Assembly (NCBI GenBank): GCA_026396115.1
Contig: JAPLXL010000005.1
Span: 137,316 to 201,315, forward strand
Direction of reading: 5' to 3'
Origin: Candidatus Nealsonbacteria bacterium
GTDB taxonomy: Bacteria; Patescibacteriota; Minisyncoccia; Minisyncoccales; RBG-13-42-11
DNA: 64,000 nucleotides
The notes under the pieces are model-generated. The model did no database searches and was not told where the DNA came from. It worked only from the letters and a program-made list of their open reading frames with translations. Of the stretch, positions 2,639 through 47,750 are shown one piece after another. The translations under genes were made by a program, and so were the position numbers. The first letter of the stretch is position 1. Every line of letters starts with the position of its first letter.

Positions 2639-2639
2639 T

Positions 2640-2930
2640 ATGATTACAAAAAAAGAGTTGCGACGTATCGCAAAATTAGCCAGACTCAGTATAACCAAAG
2701 ATGAGGAAGAGAGGTTTACAAAGGAGCTTTCTTCGATTTTGAATTATGTTGAAAAGTTAAAAGAAGCAGATGTTTCCGGGGTTGAGCCAACCAGTCATCC
2801 ATTTGGTGTTGAAAACGTGATGAGGAGTGATAAAAATAAAAAATTTGCGAAGTCAAAAAAATTATTAGAATTGGCGCCGGAAACCAAAGACGGTTATTTA
2901 AAAGTAAAGTCAATCTTTGAAATAAATTGA
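2640..2930 (+). CDS. gatC: Asp/Glu-tRNA(Asn/Gln) amidotransferase subunit C
   Basis: Start MITKKELRRIAKLARLSITKDEEERFTKEL typical of GatC; lies immediately upstream of gatA. Confidence 0.8.
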   Translation: MITKKELRRIAKLARLSITKDEEERFTKELSSILNYVEKLKEADVSGVEPTSHPFGVENVMRSDKNKKFAKSKKLLELAPETKDGYLKVKSIFEIN

Positions 2931-3020
2931 AAATTTATTGAAAAGTGAAATGAATTGAAAATTCATTGAACTCAAAGGAGAAATGAATCGAAGATTCATT
3001 GAACTTTTAGAAGTTGGTTA

Positions 3021-6422: not shown

Positions 6423-8636
6423 ATGGTATTTTCCTACAATTGGTTACAATCATTTTTTCAAAAAAGACTACCTACTCCTCAAAGATTAGCTGAGCTCTTG
6501 ACTCTTCACTTTGCTGAAGTTGAAGAAATAAAGAAGGTTGGTAGCGACTTTGCTTTAAATATTGATGTCAGGCCCAACCGGGCTTCCGATTGTTTTTCCC
6601 ATATGGGAATTGCCAGAGAAATTTCAGCAATTTGCGGTTTAAAATATCAGAATTTACCCAGTAAATTTAGAGAATTAAAAAACAAAAAAGCTAAAGATTT
6701 TGTTTCAGTAAAATTCAATGAATTTCCAATTCATTTCACCGTGGAGGTAAAAAATAAGAGAGCCTGCCCTCGCTACAGTGCCAAAGTAATCACTGACGTT
6801 AAAGTAGGTCCCTCACCAAAATGGATACAAGATAAATTAAAAGTCTGTGGTTTGAGACCGATCAATAATATTGTTGATATTGCTAATTATGTAATGCTGG
6901 AGACCGGTCAACCCCTACATGCTTTTGATGGTCAAAAGCTTGAAGGTAGAAAAATTATTGTCAGATTCGCCAAGGAAAGGGAAAAGATTATTACTCTGGA
7001 TGAAGAAAAGTATGATTTAGATGAAAATATTTTGGTCATCGCCGATGTTAAAAAACCAGTAGCCATTGCCGGAATTAAAGGCGGAAAACTTCCAGAAATT
7101 GATAAGAAAACAAAAATAGTGGTTTTGGAGTCAGCCAACTTTAATCCTCAAGTTATAAGAAAAGGTTCTAAAAAATTAAATCTCAAAACCGATGCTTCTT
7201 TAAGGTTTGAGCACGGCATAGATCCTAATCTGACAGAATTTGCAATAAATAGGGCAGCTTTTTTAATTCAAAAAATTGCTGAAGGTAAGGTTAGTTACGG
7301 ACTTGTTGATGTTTATAATAAAAAGGTTTTGCCGCAGAGAATCAAATTAGATTTAAATTATGTTGAGAAACTGCTCGGAGTAAAAGTTCCAAAAAAAGAA
7401 ATTAAAAACATTCTAAAAAAGCTGGGATTTCAATGTAAATCTACCAGAGATTCTTATGACGAAGAGGATAAATCCTCTTCTTTACCCTTCGCTGCGGCTT
7501 GGGTTATTGAGGTGCTGGTTCCGACTCGGAGATTAGATATAAGCATTCAGGAAGATTTAATTGAGGAGATAGGCAGAATTTATGGTTATGATAAAATTCC
7601 TTGTACTTCTCCAATATCTTCTTTGTTTCTGCCCCAAAAGAATTTAAATATTTTCTGGGAAGATTTTACCAAAAATATTTTAAAAGAAGCCGGATTTACT
7701 GAAGTTTATAACTATTCATTTTTTGGGGAAGAAGAAGCTAAACTTTTCGGATACCGAGCTTCCGAAGGAAGCGAGGGGGAAGAAAAGGACGAAGTCCTCT
7801 TCGCCCATAAAGAAGAAGAATTAATAGAAGTAGAAAATCCTTTAAGTCAAGAATATAAATATCTAAGGGCTAGTTTAATTCCTAATTTGTTAAAAAATGT
7901 TGAAAAAAATCAAAGATACTTTCCCGAAATGAAAATTTTTGAATTAGGAAAAATTTTCCAACCTCCCGAGCAACAGCGAAGGGGGAAGAAGAAGATTTAT
8001 CTTCTTCGCCCTCCGAAATCTGAAAATAGAATACTTGTTGGAGTAATTACAGGCGACGCTTTTTATGAAGTAAAAGGCGTAGTCGATTTACTTTTAAATA
8101 AATTAGGAATAGCTAATATTTGTAGGTATGATGAATATCCGAATGAATTAAAAAAATCAAAAACCTTCTGGCTACATCCACAAAAATGTGCTGAAATTAA
8201 GGTTGATCACCAAAAAATTGGTCTTTTGGGAGAAGTTTCTCCAAAAATTCTGAGCAGATTGGATATAAAAGAGAGAACGGTTTTGTTCGATATTGATTTT
8301 GAAAAACTTTCTCAATTGGCTTCAGAAGAACATGAATACCGGCCGATTTCTAAATTCCCGTCAGCCGTCAGAGATATAGCGGTTTTAGTCTCGAGAAATG
8401 TAAAAATAGCAGAAGTTCTAAATAAAATTTATGATACTGGCGGAAAGATAATTCGGGATGTTGACCTCTTTGATATTTACGAGGGAGAGGAGATTCCTGC
8501 AGGGAAAAAGAATTTGGCTTTTCATATAATTTATCAGGCCCAGGATCGAACCTTATCTTCGGAAGAGATAGATGAATTACAAAATAAAATAATTAAAATT
8601 CTGGAAAAAAATCCAGAGTGGACTGTGAGAAAATAG
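6423..8636 (+). CDS. pheT: phenylalanyl-tRNA synthetase beta subunit (short form), with three in-frame mini-element insertions
   Basis: B1, B3/B4 and FDX-like C-terminal domain pattern. Inserted peptides DEEDKSSSLPFAAAW, YRASEGSEGEEKDEVLFA and RRGKKKIYLLRPP are each encoded by a repeat copy. Confidence 0.85.
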   Translation: MVFSYNWLQSFFQKRLPTPQRLAELLTLHFAEVEEIKKVGSDFALNIDVRPNRASDCFSHMGIAREISAICGLKYQNLPSKFRELKNKKAKDFVSVKFNEFPIHFTVEVKNKRACPRYSAKVITDVKVGPSPKWIQDKLKVCGLRPINNIVDIANYVMLETGQPLHAFDGQKLEGRKIIVRFAKEREKIITLDEEKYDLDENILVIADVKKPVAIAGIKGGKLPEIDKKTKIVVLESANFNPQVIRKGSKKLNLKTDASLRFEHGIDPNLTEFAINRAAFLIQKIAEGKVSYGLVDVYNKKVLPQRIKLDLNYVEKLLGVKVPKKEIKNILKKLGFQCKSTRDSYDEEDKSSSLPFAAAWVIEVLVPTRRLDISIQEDLIEEIGRIYGYDKIPCTSPISSLFLPQKNLNIFWEDFTKNILKEAGFTEVYNYSFFGEEEAKLFGYRASEGSEGEEKDEVLFAHKEEELIEVENPLSQEYKYLRASLIPNLLKNVEKNQRYFPEMKIFELGKIFQPPEQQRRGKKKIYLLRPPKSENRILVGVITGDAFYEVKGVVDLLLNKLGIANICRYDEYPNELKKSKTFWLHPQKCAEIKVDHQKIGLLGEVSPKILSRLDIKERTVLFDIDFEKLSQLASEEHEYRPISKFPSAVRDIAVLVSRNVKIAEVLNKIYDTGGKIIRDVDLFDIYEGEEIPAGKKNLAFHIIYQAQDRTLSSEEIDELQNKIIKILEKNPEWTVRK
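7458..7504. repeat. mini-element copy, in-frame in pheT
   Basis: gacgaagaggataaatcctcttctttacccttcgctgcggcttgggt. Confidence 0.75.
7752..7806. repeat. mini-element copy (opposite orientation), in-frame in pheT
   Basis: taccgagcttccgaaggaagcgagggggaagaaaaggacgaagtcctcttcgcc. Confidence 0.75.
7986..8025. repeat. short mini-element copy, in-frame in pheT
   Basis: gcgaagggggaagaagaagatttatcttcttcgccctccg. Confidence 0.6.
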
Positions 8637-14516: not shown

Positions 14517-15842
14517 ATGAAACTTTCTAAAACCGATCTTAAAATTTACGTTTTAATCAAAAAAGAAATTCAGCGCCAAAAAGATGGCTTGGTTTTGATT
14601 CCTTCGGAAAATTACGCCAGCCCGGCCGTACTCTCTAGCATGGGTACGCCTTTAAGCAATAAGTATTCCGAAGGTTATCCAAAAAAGCGATATTACGGCG
14701 GCAATGAATTTATTGACCAAATTGAACAAATTGCTATTGACCGGGCAAAAAAATTATTTAAAGCAGAACATGCCAACGTTCAACCGCATTCCGGTTCTCA
14801 GGCAAATGCCGCAGTCTATCTGGGTTTATTAAATTACCGCGATAAAATTTTGGGAATTGATTTGTCAGCCGGCGGACATTTGACTCACGGCTCTCCGGTT
14901 AATTTTTCGGGTAAATTATATAAATTTGCTTATTATGGAGTTAATCCAAAAACAGAAAGGGTTGACTTGAAAGAAGTAGAAAAAATCGCCCTCAAGTTTA
15001 AGCCAAAGCTAATTATTATCAGCACTACTTCTTATTCAAGGACCCTTAATTTTAAGGCCTTCCGAAAAATTGCCGATAAAGTTGGAGCTTACTTGATGGC
15101 AGACATTGCCCATATTGCCGGTTTGGTGGTAACCGGTCTTCATCCTCACCCTTTTCCTTATTGCGATGTGGTTACCACCACCACTCACAAAACCTTAAGA
15201 GGCCCTCGTGGCGGATTAATATTGTCTAAAATCAAAGATAGATTGGATGCAAAAGGAAAACTCAATTTAGCTCAAAAAATTGATAAAGCTGTTTTTCCGG
15301 GGACGCAGGGAGGACCCTTAGATCATGTTATTGCTGCCAAAGCCGTTTGCTTTTTGGAAGCAATGAAACCTACTTTCAAAAAATATCAAAAGCAGATACT
15401 TATTAACGCCAAAGCTATGGCTGATGAATTCATAAAACAGGGGATAAGAGTGGTTAGCTGTGGCACAGACAACCATTTAATGGTCATCGACGTTTCTCCT
15501 TTTGGAGACAGTTCTAAAAGAATCCAGGACGAATTGGATAAAGTTGGAATTTATGTTAATCGCAACTCCATTCCGTTTGATAAAAGACCGCCCTATAATC
15601 CTTCGGGCATCAGATTGGGATCACCGGCCATTACCAGCCGGGGATTAAAAGAAAAAGAGTGCCGATATATTGTGCGACTGATTGTCAGATTAATAAAAAA
15701 TATTAACAACCAAGAAATTAAAAACCGAGCCCCACGTCAGTGGAGCGAAGGTGGAAAAGAGAACGAAGTTCTCTTTGACATAAAAAAAGAAGTTAGCAGA
15801 ATTACAAAAAAATTCCCCATCTATGCGGATTTTCAATGGTAA
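14517..15842 (+). CDS. glyA: serine hydroxymethyltransferase
   Basis: PLP-binding region TTTTHKTLRGPRGG and overall SHMT architecture. Confidence 0.9.
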   Translation: MKLSKTDLKIYVLIKKEIQRQKDGLVLIPSENYASPAVLSSMGTPLSNKYSEGYPKKRYYGGNEFIDQIEQIAIDRAKKLFKAEHANVQPHSGSQANAAVYLGLLNYRDKILGIDLSAGGHLTHGSPVNFSGKLYKFAYYGVNPKTERVDLKEVEKIALKFKPKLIIISTTSYSRTLNFKAFRKIADKVGAYLMADIAHIAGLVVTGLHPHPFPYCDVVTTTTHKTLRGPRGGLILSKIKDRLDAKGKLNLAQKIDKAVFPGTQGGPLDHVIAAKAVCFLEAMKPTFKKYQKQILINAKAMADEFIKQGIRVVSCGTDNHLMVIDVSPFGDSSKRIQDELDKVGIYVNRNSIPFDKRPPYNPSGIRLGSPAITSRGLKEKECRYIVRLIVRLIKNINNQEIKNRAPRQWSEGGKENEVLFDIKKEVSRITKKFPIYADFQW

Positions 15843-16746
15843 AAAAGAAGCTGAAAAAATCTTATTGGATTTAGGAAAAAGAATATCTAAAGAAAAACTT
15901 AAGCCTAAATTAGCCGTAATCCTGGTTGGCGAGGATAAAGCATCGAGGCTCTACATAAAATTAAAAAGAAAAGCGGCCAAAAAAATTAGTATAAAATTAG
16001 TTCTTTATAAGTTCAAAGAAGCCACAGTAGAAGAAAAAATTATTCAAAAAATAAAAACTTTAAACAATAATTCTTCAATTCATGGAATTATTGTTCAATT
16101 ACCTCTTCCTAAAAAATTCAACCAGAATAAAATTGTCGGGGCGGTAAATCCCAAAAAAGACGTTGACGGTTTTCAAAAAAACGGTTGGTTTCTGCCGGTA
16201 TTGCCTTCGGCAATTTTATTTACTATTAAAAAGGCAATGAAAACATCTTTCAAAAAAAAGAAGGTCGTGGCACTGGTAAATTCAAAGATTTTCGGGCAAA
16301 GGCTTAAATCTTTTTTTAAAAAAGAGGGAATAGAATTAGATTATATTTTAAGGAAAAAGCATTCTTTTACCGAGCTTCCGAGGGAAGCGAGCTCGAAGAA
16401 CATTCATTCTTCTCGACCCTTCGCTGCGACTCGGGTAGATGAAGAAGAAGATTTTATCTCTTCGACTTTTGAAAATAAAAATAAATTGAAAAGGGCAGAT
16501 ATTATTATTACAGTTTTGGGTTCCCCCAATGCAATTTGGGGTGATATGATAAAGAAGAAGGCAATTTTAATTGACGCCGGCATTAGTAAAATTGCAGCAA
16601 AAAAAGTGGTTGGCGACGTAAATAGAGAAAGCGTAAAAGAAAAAGCAGCTTTCTTAACTCCGGTACCAGGCGGCATCGGCCCCTTAACGGTCGCTTTATT
16701 ATTAAAAAACGTTTATTATGCGGCAAAATATAGCCAAGTTAATTGA
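15823..16746 (+). CDS. folD: bifunctional methylene-THF dehydrogenase/cyclohydrolase FolD, with an in-frame composite mini-element insertion
   Basis: N-terminal KLKPKLAVILVGEDKASRLYIKLKRKAAKK and C-terminal TPVPGGIGPLTVALLLKN; the inserted ~33-aa segment FTELPREASSKNIHSSRPFAATRVDEEEDFISS is a repeat copy. Confidence 0.8.
   Translation: MRIFNGKKEAEKILLDLGKRISKEKLKPKLAVILVGEDKASRLYIKLKRKAAKKISIKLVLYKFKEATVEEKIIQKIKTLNNNSSIHGIIVQLPLPKKFNQNKIVGAVNPKKDVDGFQKNGWFLPVLPSAILFTIKKAMKTSFKKKKVVALVNSKIFGQRLKSFFKKEGIELDYILRKKHSFTELPREASSKNIHSSRPFAATRVDEEEDFISSTFENKNKLKRADIIITVLGSPNAIWGDMIKKKAILIDAGISKIAAKKVVGDVNRESVKEKAAFLTPVPGGIGPLTVALLLKNVYYAAKYSQVN
16368..16466. repeat. composite mini-element (about 2 units), in-frame in folD
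   Basis: ttaccgagcttccgagggaagcgagctcgaagaacattcattcttctcgacccttcgctgcgactcgggtagatgaagaagaagattttatctcttcg. Confidence 0.7.
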
Positions 16747-18040: not shown

Positions 18041-19693
18041 ATGTATAAACCAATTATCGGCCTGGAAACCCACGTAGAATTAAATACAAAAACAAAGATG
18101 TTTTGTTCTTGTCCGAACGATCCTGATGAAAAAAGGCCTAATGTTAATATCTGTCCGACATGTACTGCGCAACCGGGGACGCTTCCTGTGATAAACGAAG
18201 AGGCAGTAAAAAAGGTAATAAAAACCGGTTTAGCTTTAAATTCTCAAATTCCCGAATACTCCAAATTTGACAGAAAGAATTATTTTTATCCCGATTTACC
18301 AAAAGGTTATCAGATTTCTCAATTGTATCAGCCTCTCTGCAAGGAGGGATTTTTGGAAATTGATGGAAGAAAAATTAGGATAAGAGAGGTTCATTTAGAA
18401 GAAGACACTGGCAGATTAGTTCACCCCGAAGGTGCAGACTATTCTTTGGTTGATTTTAATCGCGCCGGGATTCCTTTAATGGAATTGGTTACCGAGCCCG
18501 ACATTACTTCAGCCAAAGAAGCAAGAAAGTTCGCTGAAACCCTGCATTTAATTTTGCACTATCTTGATGTTTCCGATGCCGATATGGAAAAAGGCCAAAT
18601 GCGAGTGGAGGTTAATATTTCTCTTACCGAACTTTCGCGCAGCGAAAGCGAAGGTGAAGAAGAGGATTTATCCTCTTCGTCCACCGAGCTTCCGTTTACG
18701 GAAGCGAAGGTGAAGAAGAGTACGAAGAAAAGTTTTTCTTCTTTCGTCTCGTCTTCGACTCGACGAACGAAGTTCTCTTCGCCCAGCAAAAATGAAAAAT
18801 TGGGCACAAAAGTTGAAATTAAAAATTTAAATTCTTTTCGGACAGTAGAGCGAGGGATTGATTACGAAATTAAGCGGCAGACGGAATTGCTGGAATCCGG
18901 CAAAAAGATTGTTCAGGAAACGCGCGGCTGGGACGATGTTAAAGGAATAACCGTCAGTCAAAGAGAAAAAGAAGAAGCTCATGATTATAGATATTTTCCC
19001 GAGCCGGATTTGCCGCCGCTTCATTTTTCAAAAGAATTTGTTCAAAAAATTAAATCTGAAATTCCGGAGCTTCCCACCCAAAGAAGGGAGCGCCTTAAAA
19101 AAGAATATGGTTTATTGGACAAAGAGGCTGAAATTTTTGTTTATCATAAAAATTTAGGAGAATATTTTGAAAAAGTAGTATCCGAACTGCCGCCCAATCT
19201 GTCACAGGAAAAACTTTCAAAACTAATTAAACTCACCTCTAATTATTTAATTTCCGACTTGCAGGGATTATTAAAAGGACAATCGGTTACCGAGCGAAGC
19301 GAGGTGAAGAAGAGGGCAAAGCCCTCCTCGCCTGACGCCAAGAACTTTTTAATTACTCCGGAAAATTTCGCTGAATTCATCACCTTAATCTACGATGGAA
19401 AAATTTCCAGTAAGATTGCCAAAATGGTGCTCTTGGAAATGTTTAAAATCGGAGCCGACCCTTCAAATATTATTGAAGAAAAGGGATTAACTCAGATTAC
19501 CGACAAAACCGAGATTGAAAAAATTATTGAAGAGGTGATTAATAATAATCCAAAACCGGTAGAGGATTACAAATCAGGAAAAGAAACCGCTTTCCAATTT
19601 TTAGTTGGCCAAATAATGGCAAAATCAAAAGGAAAAGCCAATCCTCAAATCGTAAATAGACTCTTAAAGGAAATCTTGACAAAAACAAAATAA
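18041..19693 (+). CDS. gatB: Asp/Glu-tRNA amidotransferase subunit B, with two in-frame mini-element insertions (one ~55 aa composite)
   Basis: GLETHVELNTKTKMFCSC N-terminus and C-terminal YqeY-like domain; the inserted low-complexity segments ([32 protein letters not shown]...; TERSEVKKRAKPSSPDAK) are repeat copies. Confidence 0.9.
   Translation: MYKPIIGLETHVELNTKTKMFCSCPNDPDEKRPNVNICPTCTAQPGTLPVINEEAVKKVIKTGLALNSQIPEYSKFDRKNYFYPDLPKGYQISQLYQPLCKEGFLEIDGRKIRIREVHLEEDTGRLVHPEGADYSLVDFNRAGIPLMELVTEPDITSAKEARKFAETLHLILHYLDVSDADMEKGQMRVEVNISLTELSRSESEGEEEDLSSSSTELPFTEAKVKKSTKKSFSSFVSSSTRRTKFSSPSKNEKLGTKVEIKNLNSFRTVERGIDYEIKRQTELLESGKKIVQETRGWDDVKGITVSQREKEEAHDYRYFPEPDLPPLHFSKEFVQKIKSEIPELPTQRRERLKKEYGLLDKEAEIFVYHKNLGEYFEKVVSELPPNLSQEKLSKLIKLTSNYLISDLQGLLKGQSVTERSEVKKRAKPSSPDAKNFLITPENFAEFITLIYDGKISSKIAKMVLLEMFKIGADPSNIIEEKGLTQITDKTEIEKIIEEVINNNPKPVEDYKSGKETAFQFLVGQIMAKSKGKANPQIVNRLLKEILTKTK
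18625..18785. repeat. composite mini-element (about 3 units, ~160 bp), in-frame in gatB
   Basis: Contains accgaactttcgcgcagcgaaagcgaaggtgaagaagaggatttatcctcttcg, then accgagcttccgtttacggaagcgaaggtgaagaagag, then degenerate repeats. Confidence 0.7.
19287..19333. repeat. mini-element copy, in-frame in gatB (second site)
   Basis: taccgagcgaagcgaggtgaagaagagggcaaagccctcctcgcctg. Confidence 0.65.
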
Positions 19694-19774
19694 AATGATA
19701 TAGTTCTTTCTATAGTCAGTTCTTTTTATTTCTAAAATATTTTATATTAAGAAAAGAAAAAGGAGGAAGAAAAG

Positions 19775-20173
19775 ATGAAAAAAAGGGAGAGGAGAATAGA
19801 AATTCTGCCGCATCCAAACGATGCGTACGGATTTCTAGTTGTTTTTCCTTTTATCAAAAGGAAAAACGCCAAGGAAGAGGTAGAAGAAATTCGAAAAATG
19901 GTTATGGTGGATTTACTGGAGCGAAAGTATCTACCAAAACCGACCGAGGTTGAGAAACGAGATGGATTATATTGTTTTTTGGTCGCAGTTAAAGAATCGC
20001 GATCAGAGTTACTGGAAGATTTGAAACAGGCCTTGAATAGAGCTTTGGAAAGAAAAGTAAAAAAAGTTTACTGGGGCGAGATTTCCATCAAACAGGCTCA
20101 ACATCTGGCCCAAAAAGGGTTTGCCGTGTTATGCGATGGCGACAAAAAATTATCTATTCTTGAGAGAGAATAG
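19775..20173 (+). CDS. hypothetical protein with canonical AAGGAGG RBS and slightly elevated GC
   Basis: ORF only; no family recognised. Confidence 0.35.
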   Translation: MKKRERRIEILPHPNDAYGFLVVFPFIKRKNAKEEVEEIRKMVMVDLLERKYLPKPTEVEKRDGLYCFLVAVKESRSELLEDLKQALNRALERKVKKVYWGEISIKQAQHLAQKGFAVLCDGDKKLSILERE

Positions 20174-20185
20174 ATAATTAAAAAA

Positions 20186-20224
20186 GGAGGGAAGACTGAA
20201 TTCAGTTTCCCCTCCTTATTTTTT
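20186..20224. terminator. bidirectional intrinsic terminator between the convergent ORF 19775-20173 and miaB-miaA
   Basis: Long hairpin ggagggaagACTGAATTCAGTttcccctcc flanked by an A-run (5') and a T-run (3'). Confidence 0.5.
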
Positions 20225-22256
20225 CCAAAAACGCTTTTGTTAGTTTTTCAGCCTTCTTGTAATTTTTAAACCAATGAATGCGGTCATCTTTCTTAAACCA
20301 GGTTAATTGCCTTTTGGCGAAATGTTCAATTTCTTTTTGAAGGAGATTAATCATTTCGTCGTATTCCAATTTTTTTTGAAGATATTGCGCGATGAAACGA
20401 TATTCCAAGCCAAATTCTTCAAGTCGTTTCCAGAAAATTCCTGCTTTGCGGAGTTTTTTTACTTCCTCAATCATTCCTTCCCCTTTTAATCTTCTTAAAA
20501 GTCGTTTATTTATTAGTTTTTTCAATTCTTCTTTTTCTTTTTTAATTCCTAACATTAAAACAGGATAGGGAAGAGGATTTTTTTTGGAAACAGGCACCGG
20601 TTTTTTTGTTTTAATCACAATTTCCAAAGCCCTGATTAATCTTCTTCTGTTGTTCTTATCAATTGTTTTTGCCCTTTTTGGGTCAAGTTTTTTCAATCTA
20701 TTAAAAAGCTCATCCGTGCTTAGTTGTTCGAGATTCGATCTCAATCGCCAATCTGGTTTTACTTCGGGGATGACTATTCCGTCTAATACGGCTTGAATAT
20801 AAAATCCAGTTCCCCCGCACAAAATCGGAATTTTTCCTTTCTTAAAAATTTTATTTATTGTTTTAATTGCCAGCTTTTTGTATTGAACAACAGTAAATCT
20901 TCTTTTTGGACTGGCTACATCTAAAAGATAATGTGAGATATTCTGCATTTCTTTTTTGGTTATTTTGCCGGTACCGATATCCATTCCTTTATAAACTTGC
21001 CTTGAATCAGCTGAAATTACTTCTCCATTGAATTTTTTGGCTAATCTTACTGCTAATTCCGATTTTCCTGAGGCAGTGGGCCCTAGAATAACAATCAATT
21101 TTTTCAATGGACTAACTCCGGGTTTTATATCGTTGGGTTTTTCAGCATATTGTTGAATTATTTCTCTTAATATTTTTTCTCTTTTCTTTTTTTCTATTAA
21201 AGGGACACTGTCTTTCATTTTGAAAGCGGCGGTTCCCGAACGAGGGGAGTATTTGGAAATATAAGCCCAGTCAAATTTATTTTTTTTGAATAATTTTACC
21301 GTATTCCGGAACTGTTTTTTGGTTTCTCCGGGGAATCCGACAATTGCATCTGTTGAAAGTTTAACTGGCGTGATTTTGGCCCGTATTTTTTTGACCAGAT
21401 TTTTATATTCTTTTACAGAATAATTTCTGTTCATTTTTCTTAAAATTTTGTCATCCCCGGACTGGACAGGCAAATTTATATATTTTCCGAATTTTTTACA
21501 ATTAACTAAAGTATCAATCAGTTCATCGGAAAAATTACTGGGGTGAGGAGAGGTGAAAAGAATTTTAAAATCACCGGGAATATCATCAGTCATTTTTAAA
21601 AGTTTAGCAAAATTAATTTTGGGATTGGTAGGCGAAGAGGATATATCCTCTTCTTCACCCTTCGCTGCGGCTCGAGTAGGTGATTGATAATCATTAACAT
21701 TTTGGCCCAAAAGCCAAATCTCTTTGAAGCCATTTTTTACTGCGTTTTCTACTTCCTTTAAAATTTCTTTATGGTCGCGGCAAACTAGAGGTCCTCGCAC
21801 AAATGGAACAACACAATAAGAGCAGAAATTATTGCAGCCATTAGAAATAGGAACAAAAGCCATCGATTTTTCTCGGTATTTAGTCAAAGAGCTAAAATCC
21901 TTTTCTTTACCCTTCGTTGCGGCTCGGGTTGGTGAATACTTTAATAAATCTTTAAACTTTAAAATTTGATCAAATCCCTTAGCAAATTTTTGTCTATCTT
22001 TTTTTAAAATACAACCCGTGAGAATAGTTTTAAGTTTTGGTTTTTTGTTTTTAAGCGTTTTAAATTTGTGTAATAATCCATAAACCCTATCCACTGCCGA
22101 TTGTCTGACAGAACACATATTAACCAGAATCAAATCCGCCCCATCTTTTTTTGGGGCCTCTTTATAGCCCTTTCTTTCTAAAGCAACAGCAATCCGCTCA
22201 GAATCAGCTTTATTCATCTGGCAGCCGTATGTAATTATAAAATATTTACCCTGCAT
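20202..22256 (-). CDS. fusion protein: MiaB-like radical-SAM methylthiotransferase (N-terminal ~385 aa, TRAM domain absent) fused to tRNA dimethylallyltransferase MiaA (C-terminal ~300 aa); two mini-element insertions in the MiaB part
   Basis: N-terminus MQGKYFIITYGCQMNKADSE (UPF0004) and radical SAM CNNFCSYCVVP; C-terminus LIVILGPTASGKSELAVRLAKKFNGEVISADSRQVYKGMDIGTGK (MiaA P-loop). Inserts encode SPTRAATKGKEKDFSS and SPTRAAAKGEEEDISSSPT. Confidence 0.75.
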   Translation of the reverse strand: MQGKYFIITYGCQMNKADSERIAVALERKGYKEAPKKDGADLILVNMCSVRQSAVDRVYGLLHKFKTLKNKKPKLKTILTGCILKKDRQKFAKGFDQILKFKDLLKYSPTRAATKGKEKDFSSLTKYREKSMAFVPISNGCNNFCSYCVVPFVRGPLVCRDHKEILKEVENAVKNGFKEIWLLGQNVNDYQSPTRAAAKGEEEDISSSPTNPKINFAKLLKMTDDIPGDFKILFTSPHPSNFSDELIDTLVNCKKFGKYINLPVQSGDDKILRKMNRNYSVKEYKNLVKKIRAKITPVKLSTDAIVGFPGETKKQFRNTVKLFKKNKFDWAYISKYSPRSGTAAFKMKDSVPLIEKKKREKILREIIQQYAEKPNDIKPGVSPLKKLIVILGPTASGKSELAVRLAKKFNGEVISADSRQVYKGMDIGTGKITKKEMQNISHYLLDVASPKRRFTVVQYKKLAIKTINKIFKKGKIPILCGGTGFYIQAVLDGIVIPEVKPDWRLRSNLEQLSTDELFNRLKKLDPKRAKTIDKNNRRRLIRALEIVIKTKKPVPVSKKNPLPYPVLMLGIKKEKEELKKLINKRLLRRLKGEGMIEEVKKLRKAGIFWKRLEEFGLEYRFIAQYLQKKLEYDEMINLLQKEIEHFAKRQLTWFKKDDRIHWFKNYKKAEKLTKAFLEKIRRGN
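21631..21682. repeat. mini-element copy, in-frame in miaB-miaA
   Basis: ggcgaagaggatatatcctcttcttcacccttcgctgcggctcgagtaggtg. Confidence 0.75.
21903..21934. repeat. partial mini-element copy, in-frame in miaB-miaA
   Basis: ttctttacccttcgttgcggctcgggttggtg. Confidence 0.6.
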
Positions 22257-22400
22257 TTATTTACTCTTAAAGTTAAAAGTGCCTTAGGTTTTTTGAAGAA
22301 ATTTCAATTTATTTACCTAAAGCACTTTTTTGGTTCCCCTACTGAGGTTTTTTTCTTTTTTTGGTCTTTTAGATTTTTTCTTTCTCATTTTCTATCTCCT

Positions 22401-22742
22401 TTAATTAGTTTCTATTTTCCAGACATCTTCTGAATAGTTTTGTTTTATATCTTGAAGAAAAGACCTAAGGGCTCCCTCGTAGCACAATTCAATGTTTTTT
22501 AGATCAATCTCTTCTCTTTTTTTGGAATGTTTTTTGTCATTGCCATTGCCATATTTGTCTTCAAATATATCGAGCGGCGTCCTGAAACTGCTGAGCATTT
22601 TAATATACTTCTCTCGGATTTCTTTCCACCATTTAGAATACTCTTTGGGAGGAGAAGCCCGAGCGTTAAAGATCTCTGAATTAAATTTTTCTCCTTTGCA
22701 TGTCCATTTCGTCTTGAGCAGAATGTTCCATCTTATATCCAT
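22401..22742 (-). CDS. hypothetical protein
   Basis: ORF only. Confidence 0.3.
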   Translation of the reverse strand: MDIRWNILLKTKWTCKGEKFNSEIFNARASPPKEYSKWWKEIREKYIKMLSSFRTPLDIFEDKYGNGNDKKHSKKREEIDLKNIELCYEGALRSFLQDIKQNYSEDVWKIETN

Positions 22743-22816
22743 CTGATTTCACCTCCTTTTGTTCAGCAGACTTTTTTCCTCAGTAGAAGGTTTTTAAAAG
22801 AACTCAAATTTATTCA

Positions 22817-22869
22817 TTTACCGAGCTTCCGAAGGAAGCGAAGGTGAAGAAGAATAAATATTCTTCGCC
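22817..22869. repeat. mini-element copy (intergenic)
   Basis: ttaccgagcttccgaaggaagcgaaggtgaagaagaataaatattcttcgcct. Confidence 0.75.
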
Positions 22870-22897
22870 TGTTATATTATACTACCTTTAGTGTATT

Positions 22898-24526
22898 TTA
22901 ATGTATTTCCTCTTTTTTCTCCTTTAAGAAATATCTCCATTGTTCTAAAAATTCTATAAATATCTCAAAAGGCAAGTCCACCAAAGCGCTGAAAAAAACA
23001 GCTATGGCGTTATATTTTTTCCATTTATTTGACAGCCATTGGCCCAAACCAACAATCGGCAAAAATAAAATATCAAAAATAAAACTGAAAAATCCGGCTT
23101 TCTTTTCTTCAACCGTAAGCTCTTCTCCTCTGTTTCTGATTGCCAGTCCGGCAAAAGCAACTAAGGCCACAGATATAAGATTAATAACCATTGAGGTTGG
23201 TGGGAATTTGGCCCATTCAAAAATTGCCACTATAACTCCTATTGAAACTGAGGCTCCTATAAGATATAAAAGAGCGATAAAAAATTTAACCAAAGAACCT
23301 CTTTTTTTAGGAACTTTTATTTCGTAAATATCGGTTTTTTCTGTTTTATAGATAATTTTCATTGTTTCAAGCAATACTATTTCTAAATTACTTTTTGAGG
23401 GGGGCTTGATTGTTGCTACCAAAAGAAACATTAAAAAAGTTGATTCTAAAATATCTACAACTATGGTCAGGGGCGAAAAAGTCCTGCCAGTCATTTTAGC
23501 TAAGGGAATTTCTAAAACATAAAGAGCAGCAATATTGGTTAGAAAAATAGATAAAGTAGAGTAAACGGCTGCCCTGAAAAGGCGTTGTTTTAACGTAGAC
23601 GATCTTTTATTATAAGCTTTTTTAATTGATTCTTCTAAATCTTCCGGTTTGGAAATTTTCTCATAAATTTTTGCCGGGTTTTCTCCAGAGATTAAGATGT
23701 CTCCCAATAACAAATAAGGAGTATCATATCTTTCGCAGATTTTATAAAACTTGTCTTTTAAATGGTGGTTTAATTCTTTTTCTAAACTTTCCCAGATTGA
23801 AAAAATATTTTGAGCTATTTCGTGAAGTTTTGCGGTTGGGAGATCGGCCCACTGCCCTTCCCTCTTTTTCAAAAGATGATAAGTAATTATTGGTGAATCC
23901 AATTTAAAAAGAGCTCTTTGGACGGCAATATAAATTTGTCTGTTCTTTTCTTCTTCTGTCATTCCTCCAATTGAAATTACTCCTTGTTGTACTCTTATTT
24001 TATCTATCATTGATTCTGTCATGTAATCAATCAGATCTCTTTCTTTGTGAGAAGGAGAAAGAATTTCTTCGATTTCACAAGCAGTAATACTGAGCAGCCA
24101 ATTATAAAGTTGCATCTTCTGTTTTTCAGAACCCTTCGCTATCGCTCGGGAAGATGATGGGTTATTTTCTAAAATGTAAATATATTTGTTTAATATTTTT
24201 TCAACATCGCCAATTTTCGTTTCTTCTATGTTGTCGTTGGGAAAATGACCTCCTCTGATTAATTCCAAAATAAGGGGTTCTGAAATATTTTTTCCTTCTT
24301 TTGCCAAAAGAAATCTCCGTTTTAAAGTTCTGGCAATAGCCCCCCTTTTCATTAAATGTTCTTCTTGCCAATCAACAATTGCTCTTAATTTTTCGTAAAA
24401 TTCGGCAACTCTTGAAGCGACTTCATCAACGTGAATAAAGGACACATTTTCTTTCTTTTCAAGAGATTGGTACCAAGCTTGATATTTTTGAATTAATTTT
24501 TTAGTTGATTGAGAAATTTCCGGCAT
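22898..24526 (-). CDS. hypothetical protein with a soluble N-terminal half and a multi-TM C-terminal half; one mini-element copy inside
   Basis: Hydrophobic helices in the C-terminal ~230 aa; no recognised family. Confidence 0.4.
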   Translation of the reverse strand: MPEISQSTKKLIQKYQAWYQSLEKKENVSFIHVDEVASRVAEFYEKLRAIVDWQEEHLMKRGAIARTLKRRFLLAKEGKNISEPLILELIRGGHFPNDNIEETKIGDVEKILNKYIYILENNPSSSRAIAKGSEKQKMQLYNWLLSITACEIEEILSPSHKERDLIDYMTESMIDKIRVQQGVISIGGMTEEEKNRQIYIAVQRALFKLDSPIITYHLLKKREGQWADLPTAKLHEIAQNIFSIWESLEKELNHHLKDKFYKICERYDTPYLLLGDILISGENPAKIYEKISKPEDLEESIKKAYNKRSSTLKQRLFRAAVYSTLSIFLTNIAALYVLEIPLAKMTGRTFSPLTIVVDILESTFLMFLLVATIKPPSKSNLEIVLLETMKIIYKTEKTDIYEIKVPKKRGSLVKFFIALLYLIGASVSIGVIVAIFEWAKFPPTSMVINLISVALVAFAGLAIRNRGEELTVEEKKAGFFSFIFDILFLPIVGLGQWLSNKWKKYNAIAVFFSALVDLPFEIFIEFLEQWRYFLKEKKEEIH

Positions 24527-24529
24527 AGA

Positions 24530-26308
24530 TTATTTAATTTTAGCTAAAAATTTGTTTAATTTCATCAAACCAATATCTCCTTCTCCCCTTTTTCTTATTC
24601 TAACCGATTTTGTTTCTAATTCTTTATCTCCAACTACCAGTAAATAGGGGATTTTTTGAATTTCTCCTTCCCGGATTTTTCTTGAAACGGTTTCATTTTC
24701 ATCTTTTATAACATTGCGAATTTGCCCGAATTTACCACTAATTTCACTAATTTTTTTTGAAACCTCTCGAGCGTATTTTTCGTGTTTTGAACCCACCGGA
24801 ATAATCCAGATTTGTTCGGAAGAAAGCCAAAAGGGCAGAGCGCCGGAATAATATTCAAGTAAAACCCCAATAAATCTTTCCAGGGAGCCCAAAAGGGCGC
24901 GGTGAATCATGATTGATCTTTGTTTTTCTCCTTTTTTATTGATATAGTTGACATCAAATCTTTCTGGCAAATTAAAGTCAACTTGAATTGTGGTGCATTG
25001 CCATTCTCTTTCTAAAGCGTCTTTAATTTTTATATCAATTTTCGGACCGTAAAATGCGCCACCACCTCTATCAACTTCGTATTTCAAATTCAGTTTTTCT
25101 AAAGCGTATCTCAGAGAATTTTCGGCTTTTTTCCAAATTTTTGGATTCCCTACATATTTTTCAGGTTGAGTAGAAAGATAAACATTAAGTTCTTTGAAGC
25201 CAAATGTTTTCAATATTTTAAAAGTCAATTTAAGGGCTGAGACAAGTTCATCGGAAAGTTGTTCTGGAGTACAAAAGATATGAGCATCGTCTTGGCTTAT
25301 CTGTCTTACCCGGACCAAGCCGTGTAATGTTCCCGATTTTTCATAGCGATAGACCGTTCCCATTTCAGTATAACGCAGAGGCAGATTTTTATAACTTCTA
25401 ATTTTGGTTTTGTAAATAGCAATATGAAAAGGACAATTCATCGGCTTTATTTGATAATCATCTTTTTCTTCTTTGCCGATTTCTGCCATATGAATAGGAG
25501 GCATCATATTCTCTTTATAAAAATCAGTATGCCCCGAAACTTTCCAAAGATTTAATTTGGCTATATGAGGAGTATCTACCAATTGATAACCATTTTTCAA
25601 ATATTCATCTAAAGCGTAATCCATAATAATTTTCTTTAATAATGCTCCTTTGGGGTGCCACAAAATCAATCCCGGTCCGATATTTTCATCGATATGAAAT
25701 AAATCCAATTTTTGGCCTAAAATTCGGTGATCTCTTTTTTCGGCTTCAGCTTCTTTTGAAAAATGATTTTGCAATTCTTTTTTGGTTTGAAAAGCAATTC
25801 CGTAGATTCTGGTCAGCATCAAGTTTTTTTCGGAACCCCTCCAGTATGCTCCGGCAATTTTAGTTAATTTAAAAGCATCCGGATTAATTTCTTTTGTAGA
25901 TTTCAGATGAGGTCCCAAACATAAATCAATAAATTTTCCAGATTCATAAACAAATATGGGTTGCTTGGCTAAGCTAGGCGAAGAGAACTTCGTTCTCTTC
26001 TTCACCTTCGCTTCTTGCGGAAGCTCGGTGAGCAATTCTAATTTATAGGGTTGATTCTTGAATATCTTTTTAGCTTCGGATTTGGTAATAATTTTCTTTT
26101 TAAAGACAATATTCTGTCTTATGATTTCTTTCATTTTCTTTTCAATTTTTGGTAGATCTTCAGGCGCGACGCTTTTTGACAAATCAAAATCGTAGTAAAA
26201 CCCATTTTCAATTGCAGGCCCAATACCAAACTTGGTTCCGGGATATAATTCCTGGACCGCAGCAGCTAAAATATGGGCAAGGGAATGACGAATAGTTTCA
26301 ATTTTCAT
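24530..26308 (-). CDS. thrS: threonyl-tRNA synthetase (lacks the N-terminal TGS domain), with an in-frame mini-element insertion
   Basis: HSLAHILAAAV editing-domain zinc motif, class II catalytic core, C-terminal anticodon-binding domain; insert VKKRTKFSSPSLAKQ. Confidence 0.85.
   Translation of the reverse strand: MKIETIRHSLAHILAAAVQELYPGTKFGIGPAIENGFYYDFDLSKSVAPEDLPKIEKKMKEIIRQNIVFKKKIITKSEAKKIFKNQPYKLELLTELPQEAKVKKRTKFSSPSLAKQPIFVYESGKFIDLCLGPHLKSTKEINPDAFKLTKIAGAYWRGSEKNLMLTRIYGIAFQTKKELQNHFSKEAEAEKRDHRILGQKLDLFHIDENIGPGLILWHPKGALLKKIIMDYALDEYLKNGYQLVDTPHIAKLNLWKVSGHTDFYKENMMPPIHMAEIGKEEKDDYQIKPMNCPFHIAIYKTKIRSYKNLPLRYTEMGTVYRYEKSGTLHGLVRVRQISQDDAHIFCTPEQLSDELVSALKLTFKILKTFGFKELNVYLSTQPEKYVGNPKIWKKAENSLRYALEKLNLKYEVDRGGGAFYGPKIDIKIKDALEREWQCTTIQVDFNLPERFDVNYINKKGEKQRSIMIHRALLGSLERFIGVLLEYYSGALPFWLSSEQIWIIPVGSKHEKYAREVSKKISEISGKFGQIRNVIKDENETVSRKIREGEIQKIPYLLVVGDKELETKSVRIRKRGEGDIGLMKLNKFLAKIK
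25977..26031. repeat. mini-element copy, in-frame in thrS
   Basis: ggcgaagagaacttcgttctcttcttcaccttcgcttcttgcggaagctcggtga. Confidence 0.75.
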
Positions 26309-32222: not shown

Positions 32223-34805
32223 ATGCAAAAGAAACTCACAAAATTTATTGTTATCTTTTGTTTATTTTTGCTTTTTCTGTTTCTCTCTTTAACTACCCAA
32301 GTCGCAGTGCAGGGTGAAGAAGAGAATTTATTCTCTTCGCCCGCTTTGGCTCAAGAAAGTAAATTAGAGGTTGAATATCCGGAAATCAAAGGAATAAAAC
32401 CGGAAACGGTGACAACCGAACTGCCGGAATATGTAAGATATGTCTTTAATTTTAGCATAATAATTGCGGGTTTAGTTCTTTTTGGAGCTTTAATTTACGG
32501 AGGAGTAAAATATTTAACCTCAACCGGCAACCTGCCTGCTCTGATAGACGCCAGAGAGCAAATTTTGGCAGCTTTTTTGGGAATAATAATTTTACTTTCT
32601 TCTTATATAATTTTAACCACTATTAATCCCCAGTTAATAGTTTTTAATCTTCCCGAACTTGAAAAAGCAGAAATATTATGTAGAAATGATGATGACTGCC
32701 TCGGAGATCTTATATGTATAGAAGAAAAATGTGTTGAAGCACCCTGCGAGAAAGACGAAGATTGTCCGGGTTTTCCGGACTATGTTTGCAAATTACCAGA
32801 GGGAGTCTGCGTTTATGAAGGAAAGACTTTGATTGTTTATGAAATTCCTTTAGGCCGAATAATTGACGAAGGAGTCTGGGAGGAAGATAGGACTAAAGAA
32901 ACGGAAGATTTAATTAAAGATTTTGAAAAATTTCTTAAAGAGGAAATAAAAGTAAATCCAACTTTTAATCAGATTGCTGATTTGAATAAATATTTAAAGA
33001 CCTTGACAGAGGAATGCCAATGCGGTAATTTGGATGCTTTTTGTACCAAACCCTGGGAATGGAGTATGTCGATTGGTTGCAGCGGAGATCCTTGTAAAGA
33101 AAAACTAGAGGGGACAATCGGAGGCATTGTAGTCGGTGAAAAAACCACCAGAGAAAAAATGGAAGATGTTTTGAAAATCAATGAAGAAAAGATGAAAAAA
33201 CTTTTGGAGTTTTTAGAGAAAATCAAAGAAAAGAAAACGGTCTTCGAAAATCAACTGAATAAATTCTCCAAAGGGTTGGAAGATGCAATGGATTGTCTAA
33301 AACAAAGTAGGGAGTTATACACTTTCAAGGAGCATTTAGCTAGGGTTCAATATTATGAAGATCTTGGCTGGAACGTAAAGATCGTACAGGGTATTTTAGA
33401 AGCAAAAGCGGACCCCTTTACTTTTTACTGTTCGGTTGGAGGACCAATAATGGATTATCCCTATTTGTCGGAAATAGAATTTTCTCCGGAAGAATTCGAA
33501 TCTGTCGAAATTCCGGAGAAACTAGAAAAGCCGGAACCAATAAGCTGTCCGATTGGGATTCCAATAAGTGTAATTTTAGAACAAAGTGGCGGATTAGGAG
33601 TGGCACTGATTAACAAAATGGATGGATTAATTTATTGGATAGACGAGATGAATAAAGAAATCAGAAATATGGCTGATTTCGTTTCTCAATGCAACGAGCA
33701 AAATTGCAAAATTAATTGCGCCTGTATCCCGAATCCTTGCTTTGGTAGTCTATTACCCTGGTGTTTGTTTTTTTCTCCTGCATCTCGCTGTCTTCAGGCA
33801 ATTGGTCAATGCAGCGGTGATCCCTGTCCTTACCCGGAAATTGGAGAAACCTCAGAAAAAATTAAAAAAAATGAAGATGAGATTTTTTTACTTTTAGAAG
33901 AAATAAAAGAAATCTTCCCCAAAGTCAATGAAATTGTGAAAGTAGGCACGGAAGATGCTCTAGACCTGAAAGACATAACCTGGGCAGTTGAATTCTGTTC
34001 CGGTCCTGTGACTGAAACAGAACCACCGACCTGGTTTATGTCAGATTGTTCAATGGCTCTGGGAAGTTATGGGCCGGGCGGTCAAGTAATCGGCGATTGT
34101 CATCCCTGGGATTTCTTTTGTTGTACTCAGTCAAAAGAAGCTTTGAGGGAGGTACCTTCTTTGCCTCCGACGCTTCGAAAACTGGGACCTCGTGTTGGCC
34201 CGGAAGGTCCGGAAGAACCCACGCCTTCAGAATTAGCTAAAAGTTCAATTCCGGCAATGTCTTCGCCGCCTCTCAAGACAGGCGAAGTTAGCTGTCTAAA
34301 ACAGAGCGATCCTCGTTGGGGAAACAAATTATTTGGTCCTTGCCCGCCAGGCGGTACTTATACTGACGCAGGTTGCGGACCTTCTTCTTTAGCAATGGCA
34401 ATTAGTTATTTTCAAAACAAAGAAATTCTTGTTGATACAATCGGGGAAAAAATTGTTGAAAAAGGTTTAAGAAATTGCGACAGCGGCTCAAGCCCTAGCA
34501 TAATGACAGTTATTCCGTCACTATATGGATTATCTTCATATGAAATTAAACCGTTTGCCTTTGAAAACTGGAAAGAAGAAGTAAAGAAATGCTTTGATGA
34601 AGGAGGGTTAATTACTGCTCTAATGGCTGGCCCCAGTAAGTTTACTGCAGGCAGCGGACATTTTATAGCGCTAACTGACATAACCGATGATTATGCTTAT
34701 ATTACGGTAAATGATTCATCCAAAAGAATCTGCCCCAGACAGGAGTTATTAAAAGATGTTTTTAAGTTCAAAAAACAACCGGGTATTTGGTGTATAAAAA
34801 AATGA
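32223..34805 (+). CDS. large secreted/membrane-anchored Cys-rich protein: signal peptide, VirB2/TrbC-like two-helix pilin-like domain, Cys-rich modules, C-terminal C39-like cysteine peptidase domain
   Basis: N-terminal signal peptide; TTELPEYVRYVFNFSIIIAGLVLFGALIYGGVKYLTSTGNLPALIDAREQILAAFLGIIILLSSYIILTTINPQL has two TM helices; the C-terminus carries ...DAGCGPSSLAMAISYF... and ...GSGHFIALTDITDD... (C39-type Cys/His motifs). A mini-element copy is inserted near the N-terminus. Confidence 0.5.
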   Translation: MQKKLTKFIVIFCLFLLFLFLSLTTQVAVQGEEENLFSSPALAQESKLEVEYPEIKGIKPETVTTELPEYVRYVFNFSIIIAGLVLFGALIYGGVKYLTSTGNLPALIDAREQILAAFLGIIILLSSYIILTTINPQLIVFNLPELEKAEILCRNDDDCLGDLICIEEKCVEAPCEKDEDCPGFPDYVCKLPEGVCVYEGKTLIVYEIPLGRIIDEGVWEEDRTKETEDLIKDFEKFLKEEIKVNPTFNQIADLNKYLKTLTEECQCGNLDAFCTKPWEWSMSIGCSGDPCKEKLEGTIGGIVVGEKTTREKMEDVLKINEEKMKKLLEFLEKIKEKKTVFENQLNKFSKGLEDAMDCLKQSRELYTFKEHLARVQYYEDLGWNVKIVQGILEAKADPFTFYCSVGGPIMDYPYLSEIEFSPEEFESVEIPEKLEKPEPISCPIGIPISVILEQSGGLGVALINKMDGLIYWIDEMNKEIRNMADFVSQCNEQNCKINCACIPNPCFGSLLPWCLFFSPASRCLQAIGQCSGDPCPYPEIGETSEKIKKNEDEIFLLLEEIKEIFPKVNEIVKVGTEDALDLKDITWAVEFCSGPVTETEPPTWFMSDCSMALGSYGPGGQVIGDCHPWDFFCCTQSKEALREVPSLPPTLRKLGPRVGPEGPEEPTPSELAKSSIPAMSSPPLKTGEVSCLKQSDPRWGNKLFGPCPPGGTYTDAGCGPSSLAMAISYFQNKEILVDTIGEKIVEKGLRNCDSGSSPSIMTVIPSLYGLSSYEIKPFAFENWKEEVKKCFDEGGLITALMAGPSKFTAGSGHFIALTDITDDYAYITVNDSSKRICPRQELLKDVFKFKKQPGIWCIKK
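32302..32350. repeat. mini-element copy at the N-terminus of the 860-aa surface protein
   Basis: gggtgaagaagagaatttattctcttcgcccgctttggc. Confidence 0.6.
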
Positions 34806-44120: not shown

Positions 44121-44205
44121 CGGGTGCGTGGTGGAGTAGCTAACACACCACTCTGTAAAAGTGGCGCCTTCGGGCTTCGCAGGTGCAATTCCTGCCGCAC
44201 CCACC
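44121..44205 (+). tRNA. tRNA-Tyr (anticodon GTA), type II with long variable arm, CCA encoded
   Basis: Acceptor GGGTGCG/CGCACCC, anticodon stem-loop CCACT-CTGTAAA-AGTGG, 14-nt variable arm, T-arm GCAGG-TGCAATT-CCTGC, 3' ACCA. Confidence 0.75.
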
Positions 44206-44282
44206 ATAAAAATTTAAAATTAAAAATTAAAAAAGAAGAAAAGAAAAAGGAGGCAAAAGGGAAAAATATCGCCGAGGGACTT

Positions 44283-47427: not shown

Positions 47428-47485
47428 CCCGAGCGATAGTAAAGAGGAGAGAAGAGAATTTATCCTCTACGAACTCATAAAAAAT

Positions 47486-47662: not shown

Positions 47663-47734
47663 GGGGGCGTGGTGAAATGGCTATCATAGGAATCTCCAAA
47701 ATTTCTGTTTCAGGTTCGAATCCTGGCGCCCCCG
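47663..47734 (+). tRNA. tRNA-Trp (anticodon CCA), CCA not encoded
   Basis: Acceptor GGGGGCG/CGCCCCC, anticodon stem-loop GGAAT-CTCCAAA-ATTTC, T-arm TCAGG-TTCGAAT-CCTGG. Confidence 0.7.
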
Positions 47735-47750
47735 CTTCTTTATAAACAAT

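Follow-up and report, generated by a model that had tools for sequence, protein, structure and literature searches.

A single minus-strand gene in the genome of a Candidatus Nealsonbacteria bacterium (contig JAPLXL010000005.1 of assembly GCA_026396115.1) encodes two consecutive enzymes of the ms2i6A37 pathway of tRNA modification. The gene lies in a stretch of 64,000 nucleotides (positions 137,316 to 201,315 of the contig), here called the window, whose own numbering is used throughout. Its product joins a MiaB-type methylthiotransferase core to a complete MiaA, the tRNA dimethylallyltransferase. To our knowledge, all characterised methylthiotransferases (MiaB, MtaB, RimO, CDKAL1 and CDK5RAP1) consist of a UPF0004, a radical-SAM and a TRAM domain. 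The window protein belongs to a family of TRAM-less fusions that breaks this three-domain rule. The likely overall explanation is a bifunctional synthase that arose from a fused gene pair and from which TRAM was deleted later. The finding is real and has an informative evolutionary pattern, though what is fused are two enzymes already known from a single pathway. Close relatives provide a natural series in which the two enzymes are separate or fused and TRAM is present or absent, with all four combinations found, partly at the same locus. The series is suited to testing the role of TRAM in substrate capture, the hand-off between consecutive tRNA enzymes and the shedding of RNA-binding modules in reduced genomes.

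A MiaB-type core and a complete MiaA in one reading frame

The open reading frame (ORF) begins with ATG and contains no frameshift or stop codon (Table 1). Residues 4–373 form the methylthiotransferase core, which carries all six cluster cysteines, and a linker of about ten residues, predicted to be disordered, leads from there into MiaA. The single-ORF fusion had been proposed in a sequence-only reading of this DNA. All the motifs quoted there are present, both enzymes are recognised by Pfam, NCBIfam and Protein Data Bank (PDB) searches, and domain annotation for UPF0004, Radical_SAM, TRAM and IPPT matched every domain except TRAM.

The C-terminal half is a standard MiaA and, as had been stated, a complete one. 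The NCBIfam MiaA model TIGR00174 aligns over positions 1-285 of 288 at residues 387-665 (256.3 bits; cutoff 148.65), and Pfam IPPT (PF01715) matches over its entire length (1-243 of 243) at residues 420-657 with an E-value of 2.3e-70. The P-loop is followed at residues 417-420 by DSRQ, an instance of the DSxQ motif whose aspartate is catalytic in E. coli MiaA. Residues 385-667 align to the MiaA structures 2QGN and 3D3Q, and 2ZM5 was also matched. The full-length module, the P-loop and DSxQ are thus shared with canonical MiaA (the E. coli MiaA–tRNAPhe complexes 2ZM5 and 3FOZ; B. halodurans 2QGN/3EXA), but in the fusion the module has no start of its own and is translated as the C-terminal half of a 684-residue protein. 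The region around L384 resembles the MKK(L/I)IVILGPT N-terminus of unfused MiaAs. An internal start producing a separate MiaA was considered, since the TTG at L384 in the window has a GGAG 8 nt before it, and was rejected because the arrangement is unconserved (GGCG in the related locus L082, TTA in L083).

The N-terminal half is closer to MiaB than to its paralogues, scoring 328 bits with the MiaB model, 257 with MtaB and 219 with RimO. PDB sequence searches give E-values of 7e-57 for MiaB and 2.5e-38 for RimO, and residues 4-364 align to chain residues 19-378 of 457 in Bacteroides uniformis MiaB (7MJV). With the broader MiaB/RimO subfamily model TIGR00089 this half scores 360.4 bits, above the cutoff of 251. 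The half shares the three-cysteine UPF0004 domain and the CxxxCxxC radical-SAM core with canonical MiaB (B. uniformis, 7MJV-7MJZ). It differs from canonical MiaB in having no C-terminal TRAM, in continuing after the short linker into MiaA, and in carrying two 16-residue loops derived from a repeat. It is called a MiaB-type core, and not a standard MiaB, because it has no TRAM and falls under the cutoff of the MiaB equivalog model (below).

That the MiaB half ends directly after the radical-SAM core had also been read from the sequence, and four kinds of evidence bear this out. The Pfam TRAM model PF01938 has no match in the protein even at E<=0.1. Positions 373-437 of the MiaB equivalog TIGR01574, its TRAM part, are unmatched. 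A TRAM hidden Markov model (HMM) built from relatives has zero matches in any frame of the 64-kb window. The fourth line is an alignment of 117 sequences, consisting of the window protein and 116 of its best 120 matches in a collection of 5.8 billion proteins, with relatives taken at the level of 90%-identity clusters. In it, a block of about 60–70 residues present in P0019, P0049, P0054 and other fused relatives is absent from the window protein, as a clean deletion. A linker of about ten residues leaves no room for a TRAM of about 60 residues, and a hidden or divergent TRAM between the halves is ruled out by the linker length, by Pfam and by the family-specific HMM.

Both halves appear to be maintained. 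Cysteines C48, C82, C141, C145 and C148 are invariant in all 117 fused proteins, and C12 is present in each of the 81 whose gene call extends to that column. On the MiaA side no variation occurs in the 117 proteins at G392, G397, K398, D417, S418 and Q420, nor at several arginines. The invariance of the Fe-S cysteines, the P-loop and DSxQ indicates purifying selection on both halves. In an AlphaFold2 (AF2) model both halves are confidently folded, with a mean predicted local distance difference test (pLDDT) of 84.9. Low confidence is confined to residues 111-128 and 195-211 (the repeat inserts), the cysteine loop modelled without its cluster, the linker at 373-383 and the C-terminal tail. The best Foldseek matches of the model are MiaB 7MJZ (target-normalised template-modelling score, TMt, 0.70) and tRNA-bound E. 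coli MiaA 3FOZ (TMt 0.86). The modelled MiaA half superposes on 2ZM5/3FOZ with a TMt of 0.84-0.86 and a root-mean-square deviation of about 3 Å over about 302 columns, and is thus predicted to have the MiaA fold, a core with a helical insertion domain that clamps the anticodon stem.

Judged from this conservation, the fused protein is very probably a bifunctional ms2i6A37 synthase. Its MiaA module would transfer the dimethylallyl group of dimethylallyl diphosphate (DMAPP) to N6 of A37 in tRNAs for UNN codons, which have A36-A37-A38. The N-terminal core, with two [4Fe-4S] clusters, would then add a methylthio group to C2 of the same A37. Two tRNA genes of the window, for tRNA-Tyr(GTA) and tRNA-Trp(CCA), encode candidate substrates in which A36 is the last base of the anticodon (Table 1).

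It is very improbable that the MiaB half is decaying or has been repurposed, leaving a protein that acts as MiaA only or a core directed at a target other than i6A37-tRNA. Such decay would agree with the missing TRAM, and a point against bifunctionality is the score of 328.0 bits with TIGR01574, of which only positions 1-372 of 437 are matched and whose curated cutoff is 355.3. The score lies under the cutoff because the TRAM part is missing. Two repeat elements have also inserted into the MiaB half, and the identical protein in NCBI nr (P0001, from a Candidatus Nealsonbacteria metagenome-assembled genome, MAG, of the Parcubacteria group of Patescibacteria) is named MiaA only. However, the six cluster cysteines and many further core residues are invariant across 117 relatives at 45-89% identity, and the frame is free of frameshifts and stops. 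The inserts are recent, have lengths that are multiples of three and sit in variable loops that are predicted to be disordered. Sequence and fold both match best to MiaB and not to MtaB or RimO.

Recurrence of the fusion within Patescibacteria

All of the best 120 matches are fused, in the same order, down to 45% identity. A fragment spanning the junction (residues 300-470), compared with 1.84 billion representatives of 50%-identity clusters, retrieved 34 clusters at E<=1e-30, compared with 9,024 at E<=1e-10. Fused proteins make up about 20 of these 34 clusters; the survey of related genomes called for by the sequence-only reading finds the same fusion again and again. A Pfam scan of ten of these cluster representatives revealed fused forms both with and without TRAM. 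Among MiaA and MiaB proteins as a whole the fusion has a small share and is restricted to a lineage, yet it is well established within Patescibacteria. The earlier opinion that this is not a standard architecture therefore holds across bacteria but not within the clade, where the fusion is common.

The chance that the fusion is a sequencing or assembly artefact, in which a missing base has falsely joined adjacent miaB and miaA genes, is negligible. Related loci L001 and L002 do have separate, overlapping miaB–miaA genes, in which an error of one nucleotide could imitate a fusion, and L006 resembles a frameshifted fusion. Against such false joining, at least 117 fused proteins are present in independent assemblies (JGI, ENA, NCBI and Logan). 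The DNA junction of L082 and of L083, two loci from different samples, is the same, in frame and without interruption, and encodes an identical junction peptide; across the family this region has diverged while keeping its frame.

The locus is conserved as well. In the window (18041-26308), in L081, L082 and L083 and at the locus of P0019, the order is ThrRS, a membrane protein and a small ORF, then the fusion, which converges with GatB across small ORFs.

Hundreds of such proteins are already in databases under automatic names, either MiaA or MiaB; one JGI name, that of P0105, gives both activities. With single-activity names, reconstructions of Patescibacteria pathways will wrongly score one of the two steps as missing. 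In a search of the full-text literature, with incomplete coverage of subscription journals, no paper turned up that describes a MiaB–MiaA fusion or a methylthiotransferase naturally lacking TRAM, and the fusion is apparently undescribed.

Loss of TRAM and the possible role of MiaA

The distance between the invariant R359 of the MiaB half and G392 of the MiaA P-loop is bimodal, spanning 17-43 residues in 98 of the 117 aligned fused proteins and 80-110 in 19. TRAM is absent in 98 and present in 19. Most of the long forms have a precomputed Pfam TRAM match, and their extra block between the halves measures about 60–70 residues. TRAM-containing fusions such as P0019, P0049, P0054, P0065, P0067, P0108 and P0110 have the domain order of the window protein but retain TRAM (PF01938; about 60–70 residues) between the radical-SAM core and MiaA. 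These fusions of other Patescibacteria, which also include the 50%-identity cluster representatives P0121, P0124, P0125, P0129, P0137 and P0153, are 45-66% identical to the window protein. As P0019 lies in the same ThrRS–fusion–GatB neighbourhood, it is an orthologue at the same locus. The linker of TRAM-less fusions is short (median 4 residues) and basic, lysine and arginine making up 44% of it, compared with 21% of the whole protein. Deletion boundaries and linker sequences vary between TRAM-less groups.

For a neighbour-joining tree, the MiaB core and MiaA were concatenated (620 columns, 130 sequences). In this tree the separate Patescibacteria pairs are basal and the fused clade is derived; its earliest branches have TRAM, and TRAM-less and TRAM-containing fused groups are interleaved. 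By Fitch parsimony, the TRAM state among fused proteins changes at least six times in 100 of 100 bootstrap trees (median 8). The changes are read as repeated losses because regain at the same place is implausible, and the differing deletion end-points and linkers agree with this. The pattern points to fusion first and repeated TRAM loss afterwards. The fusion probably originated in an adjacent, often overlapping Patescibacteria miaB–miaA pair through loss of the miaB stop codon. The earliest fused proteins would have retained TRAM internally, and several independent deletions would have followed, including one in the Nealsonbacteria lineage of the window. Two features of the data weaken this order of events. 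The neighbour-joining trees have short internal branches, where errors of topology inflate the count of losses, and unfused relatives are sparsely and unevenly sampled, being drawn from the best 80 loci of a scan of GTDB species representatives, which is not a census.

Unfused loci among those 80 were analysed by ORF and HMM and checked with Pfam. The HMM, derived from Patescibacteria, missed TRAM in some MiaBs from other phyla (Pfam found it in L008, L056, L066 and L070), so only ORFs that end right after the core were counted as TRAM-less. Unfused pairs have miaB followed by miaA, as in the fusion, and often overlap, but yield two polypeptides instead of one. Separate, adjacent genes with a TRAM-containing MiaB occur in the Patescibacteria loci L002 (another Nealsonbacteria), L007, L010, L014 and L025, and the Actinomycetota loci L008, L021 and L054 have the same gene order with separate genes and TRAM. 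In L001 (at about 960-985) an ATGA combines the miaB stop with the miaA start, and in L002 (at about 4190-4205) the genes overlap by a few bases, so that a change of one base could fuse or split them. At L006 (927-2874) the sequence looks like a TRAM-containing fusion with a frameshift in the MiaB part. Together these three loci indicate that single-base changes toggle fused, split and broken states in the clade. The order of the pathway, MiaA before MiaB, is established, and the order of domains in the fusion is the reverse; it follows the ancestral gene order.

The sequence-only reading had gone further and proposed that MiaA replaces TRAM and that the fusion channels tRNA between the active sites. 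TRAM domains are interchangeable between MiaB and MtaB, and TRAM has been proposed to be a non-specific RNA clamp (Anton et al., PMC2952846). The tether to MiaA could create a high local concentration of newly prenylated tRNA near the MiaB core and permit a hand-off by proximity. Together with the short linker rich in lysine and arginine, it might make the generic clamping role of TRAM dispensable. At least six losses among fused proteins fit the idea that TRAM becomes redundant once the core is tethered to MiaA. Functional compensation for TRAM by MiaA is possible, though we regard it with some doubt. A stronger version is tentative: MiaA, either fused to the MiaB core or as a tightly coupled neighbour, may have taken over the substrate docking of TRAM, giving an obligate two-step ms2i6A37 synthase with hand-off of the tRNA without release. 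If so, the repeated, independent deletions of TRAM in fused proteins would be what this takeover has left behind in evolution. The protein would be the first methylthiotransferase working without TRAM and a natural case in which one RNA-modifying enzyme acts as the RNA-binding module for its successor.

Several observations weigh against such a takeover. TRAM-less MiaBs also occur unfused in Patescibacteria, namely in L001, L004, L005 and L009 (Microgenomates) and in L062 (Shapirobacteria), which has no miaA within 3 kb. Outside Patescibacteria, the Candidatus Omnitrophica bacterium 4484_213 MAG (L041) has another. Covalent fusion is thus not required for the loss of TRAM. In the structures of tRNA complexes (2ZM5/3FOZ for MiaA, 7MJV-7MJY for MiaB) each enzyme grips the anticodon stem-loop and flips A37 into its own active site. 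Since both engage a flipped-out A37 on the same stem-loop, MiaA cannot simply hold that stem-loop during the MiaB step, and a sequential hand-off is needed instead of simultaneous action. The AF2 models, with predicted template-modelling scores (pTM) of 0.54 (window protein) and 0.58 (P0043, a fusion with a short linker), give no confident arrangement of the domains. The search for a separate TRAM protein or a second methylthiotransferase covered the 64 kb of the window. The claim that MiaA replaces TRAM is therefore plausible but unproven, because TRAM loss needs no covalent fusion. Speaking for it are the early TRAM-containing fusions, the repeated losses and the generic nature of the TRAM clamp; the unfused TRAM-less MiaBs, the shared stem-loop and the low pTM speak against it and against channelling.

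Alternatively, the fusion could be incidental and the loss of TRAM unrelated to it, so that two independent enzymes would share one chain with no gain in hand-off. We consider this unlikely, though it deserves weight. In compact, reduced genomes changes of one nucleotide would fuse and split overlapping miaB–miaA genes, and TRAM may be dispensable for other reasons, such as a small set of tRNAs or a tightly binding core. The unfused TRAM-less MiaBs (by the Pfam TRAM model), the isolated gene of L062, the easy flips offered by the overlaps in L001 and L002 and the absence of a confident inter-domain geometry all agree with it, as do the 3-5 changes between the fused and separate states on bootstrap trees (Fitch parsimony). 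However, miaA lies directly or a short way downstream in five of the six cases of unfused TRAM-less MiaB, which would allow a non-covalent partnership. At least six losses among fused proteins suggest relaxed selection after fusion. The linkers of most TRAM-less fusions are reduced to a few basic residues, which is unexpected for indifferent domains. Among the sampled loci from other phyla a TRAM-less MiaB was seen only in L041; L008, L056, L066 and L070 have TRAM by Pfam. In L041 the MiaB is a stop-to-stop ORF of 410 residues (7-1236) with no Pfam TRAM, and miaA (1980-3059) begins about 750 nt downstream. A scan of the gap with the TRAM HMM found no displaced TRAM ORF, and the gap was given no other look.

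A bifunctional synthase with secondary loss of TRAM has a partial parallel in MnmC, a bifunctional enzyme for two consecutive steps of mnm5(s2)U34 synthesis that occurs as separate proteins in some bacteria. Two consecutive tRNA-modification activities are fused in both cases. MnmC has unrelated folds and chemistry, and its fusion is not known to go with the loss of an RNA-binding domain.

Neighbouring genes and a dispersed palindromic repeat

Table 1. Positions of the fused gene, its parts and other features of the window
Feature	Position	Strand	Remarks
Fused MiaB–MiaA gene, 684 aa + stop	20202..22256	-	ORF list, ATG start; Pfam and NCBIfam matches
UPF0004 / methylthiotransferase N-terminal domain, aa 4-96	21969..22247	-	Pfam PF00919, E 1.9e-23; auxiliary-cluster C12, C48, C82
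Radical-SAM domain, aa 135-322	21291..21854	-	Pfam PF04055, E 1.5e-26; closest solved structures MiaB 7MJZ, 7MJV
Radical-SAM cluster motif CNNFCSYC (C141, C145, C148)	21813..21836	-	Visible in sequence; CxxxCxxC
Inter-enzyme linker KPNDIKPGVSP, aa 373-383	21108..21140	-	AF2 pLDDT<50; occupies the TRAM position of TRAM-containing fused relatives
Complete MiaA (tRNA dimethylallyltransferase) module, aa 385-684	20205..21104	-	TIGR00174, Pfam IPPT
MiaA P-loop GPTASGKS, aa 392-399	21060..21083	-	Visible in sequence
Insertion 1, 48 nt, 16 codons	21882..21929	-	Peptide about SPTRAATKGKEKDFSS; variable linker between UPF0004 and radical SAM; boundaries within a few nt
Insertion 2, 48 nt	21636..21683	-	Peptide SPTRAAAKGEEEDISS; intact palindrome GAAGAGGATATATCCTCTTC; nhmmer E 3e-16
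GatB	18041..19693	+	Neighbour of the fusion
ThrRS	24530..26308	-	Neighbour of the fusion
tRNA-Tyr(GTA), A36-A37-A38, candidate substrate	44122..44206	+	ARAGORN; anticodon loop CT[GTA]AA
tRNA-Trp(CCA), A36-A37-A38, candidate substrate	47663..47735	+	ARAGORN; anticodon loop CT[CCA]AA
Repeat copies	2577-2620, 3764-3821, 7455-7511, 7762-7810, 7957-8016, 15744-15781, 16389-16473		
Repeat copies	18633-18762, 21625-21683, 21880-21936, 22828-22874, 25971-26019, 32287-32363		
Repeat copies	47420-47479, 49292-49349, 53134-53183, 53421-53480, 54731-54785, 55781-55839		

Between the fusion and its two large neighbours lie ORFs at 19775-20173, 22401-22742 and 22898-24526 (132, 113 and 542 aa), which have no Pfam family and no tie to the fusion; the last is a predicted membrane protein. 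Just upstream of the fusion gene, on the same strand, an ORF of 23 residues (22316-22387; MRKKKSKRPKKEKNLSRGTKKVL) has a strong AGGAG ribosome-binding site and is followed by a long imperfect inverted repeat, AAAGTGCTTTAGG … CCTAAGGCACTTT.

The two mini-element insertions noticed earlier in the MiaB half are confirmed by empty sites in the DNA of relatives. Both are exactly 48 nt long and in frame, and both lie in loops whose length varies across the family and which are predicted to be disordered (AF2 pLDDT<50 at residues 111-128 for insertion 1 and 195-211 for insertion 2). Insertion 1, whose palindrome is partly decayed, was matched by nhmmer at 21880-21936 (E 8e-12); in DNA alignments it is present in L082 and its site is empty in L083. 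Insertion 2 has empty sites in both and is unique to this genome among the relatives compared. Absence of the inserts from relatives at 81-87% identity marks them as recent, and they are probably neutral for function.

The insertions belong to a dispersed palindromic repeat family of about 48-60 nt with roughly 25 copies in the window. The unit has a conserved 5′ part, ACCCGAGCCGCAGCGAAGG, followed by a hairpin such as GAAGAGGAT-N-ATCCTCTTC. The stems differ between copies yet still pair (GAGGAT/ATCCTC, GAGAAT/ATTCTC, GAAGAT/ATCTTC, GAGGAC..GTCCTC). Many copies are in frame within long ORFs, including those of GatB and ThrRS. In GatB three or four adjacent or nested copies at 18633-18762 produce an insert of about 60 residues, and ThrRS has one copy at 25971-26019. 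By description the family can be likened to the Rickettsia palindromic elements (RPEs), which are short, palindromic and found as in-frame insertions in protein genes: both are dispersed, lie in frame within ORFs and add surface loops. The window repeat differs in sequence family and host phylum and is much shorter. One copy (47420-47479) starts within the 3′ end of the tRNA-Thr(GGT) gene (47354-47430), where the 5′ part of the repeat overlaps the 3′ strand of the acceptor stem (CTCAGGCTCCCGAGCG…). This overlap could be chance, or a hint to the origin or the target of the repeat.

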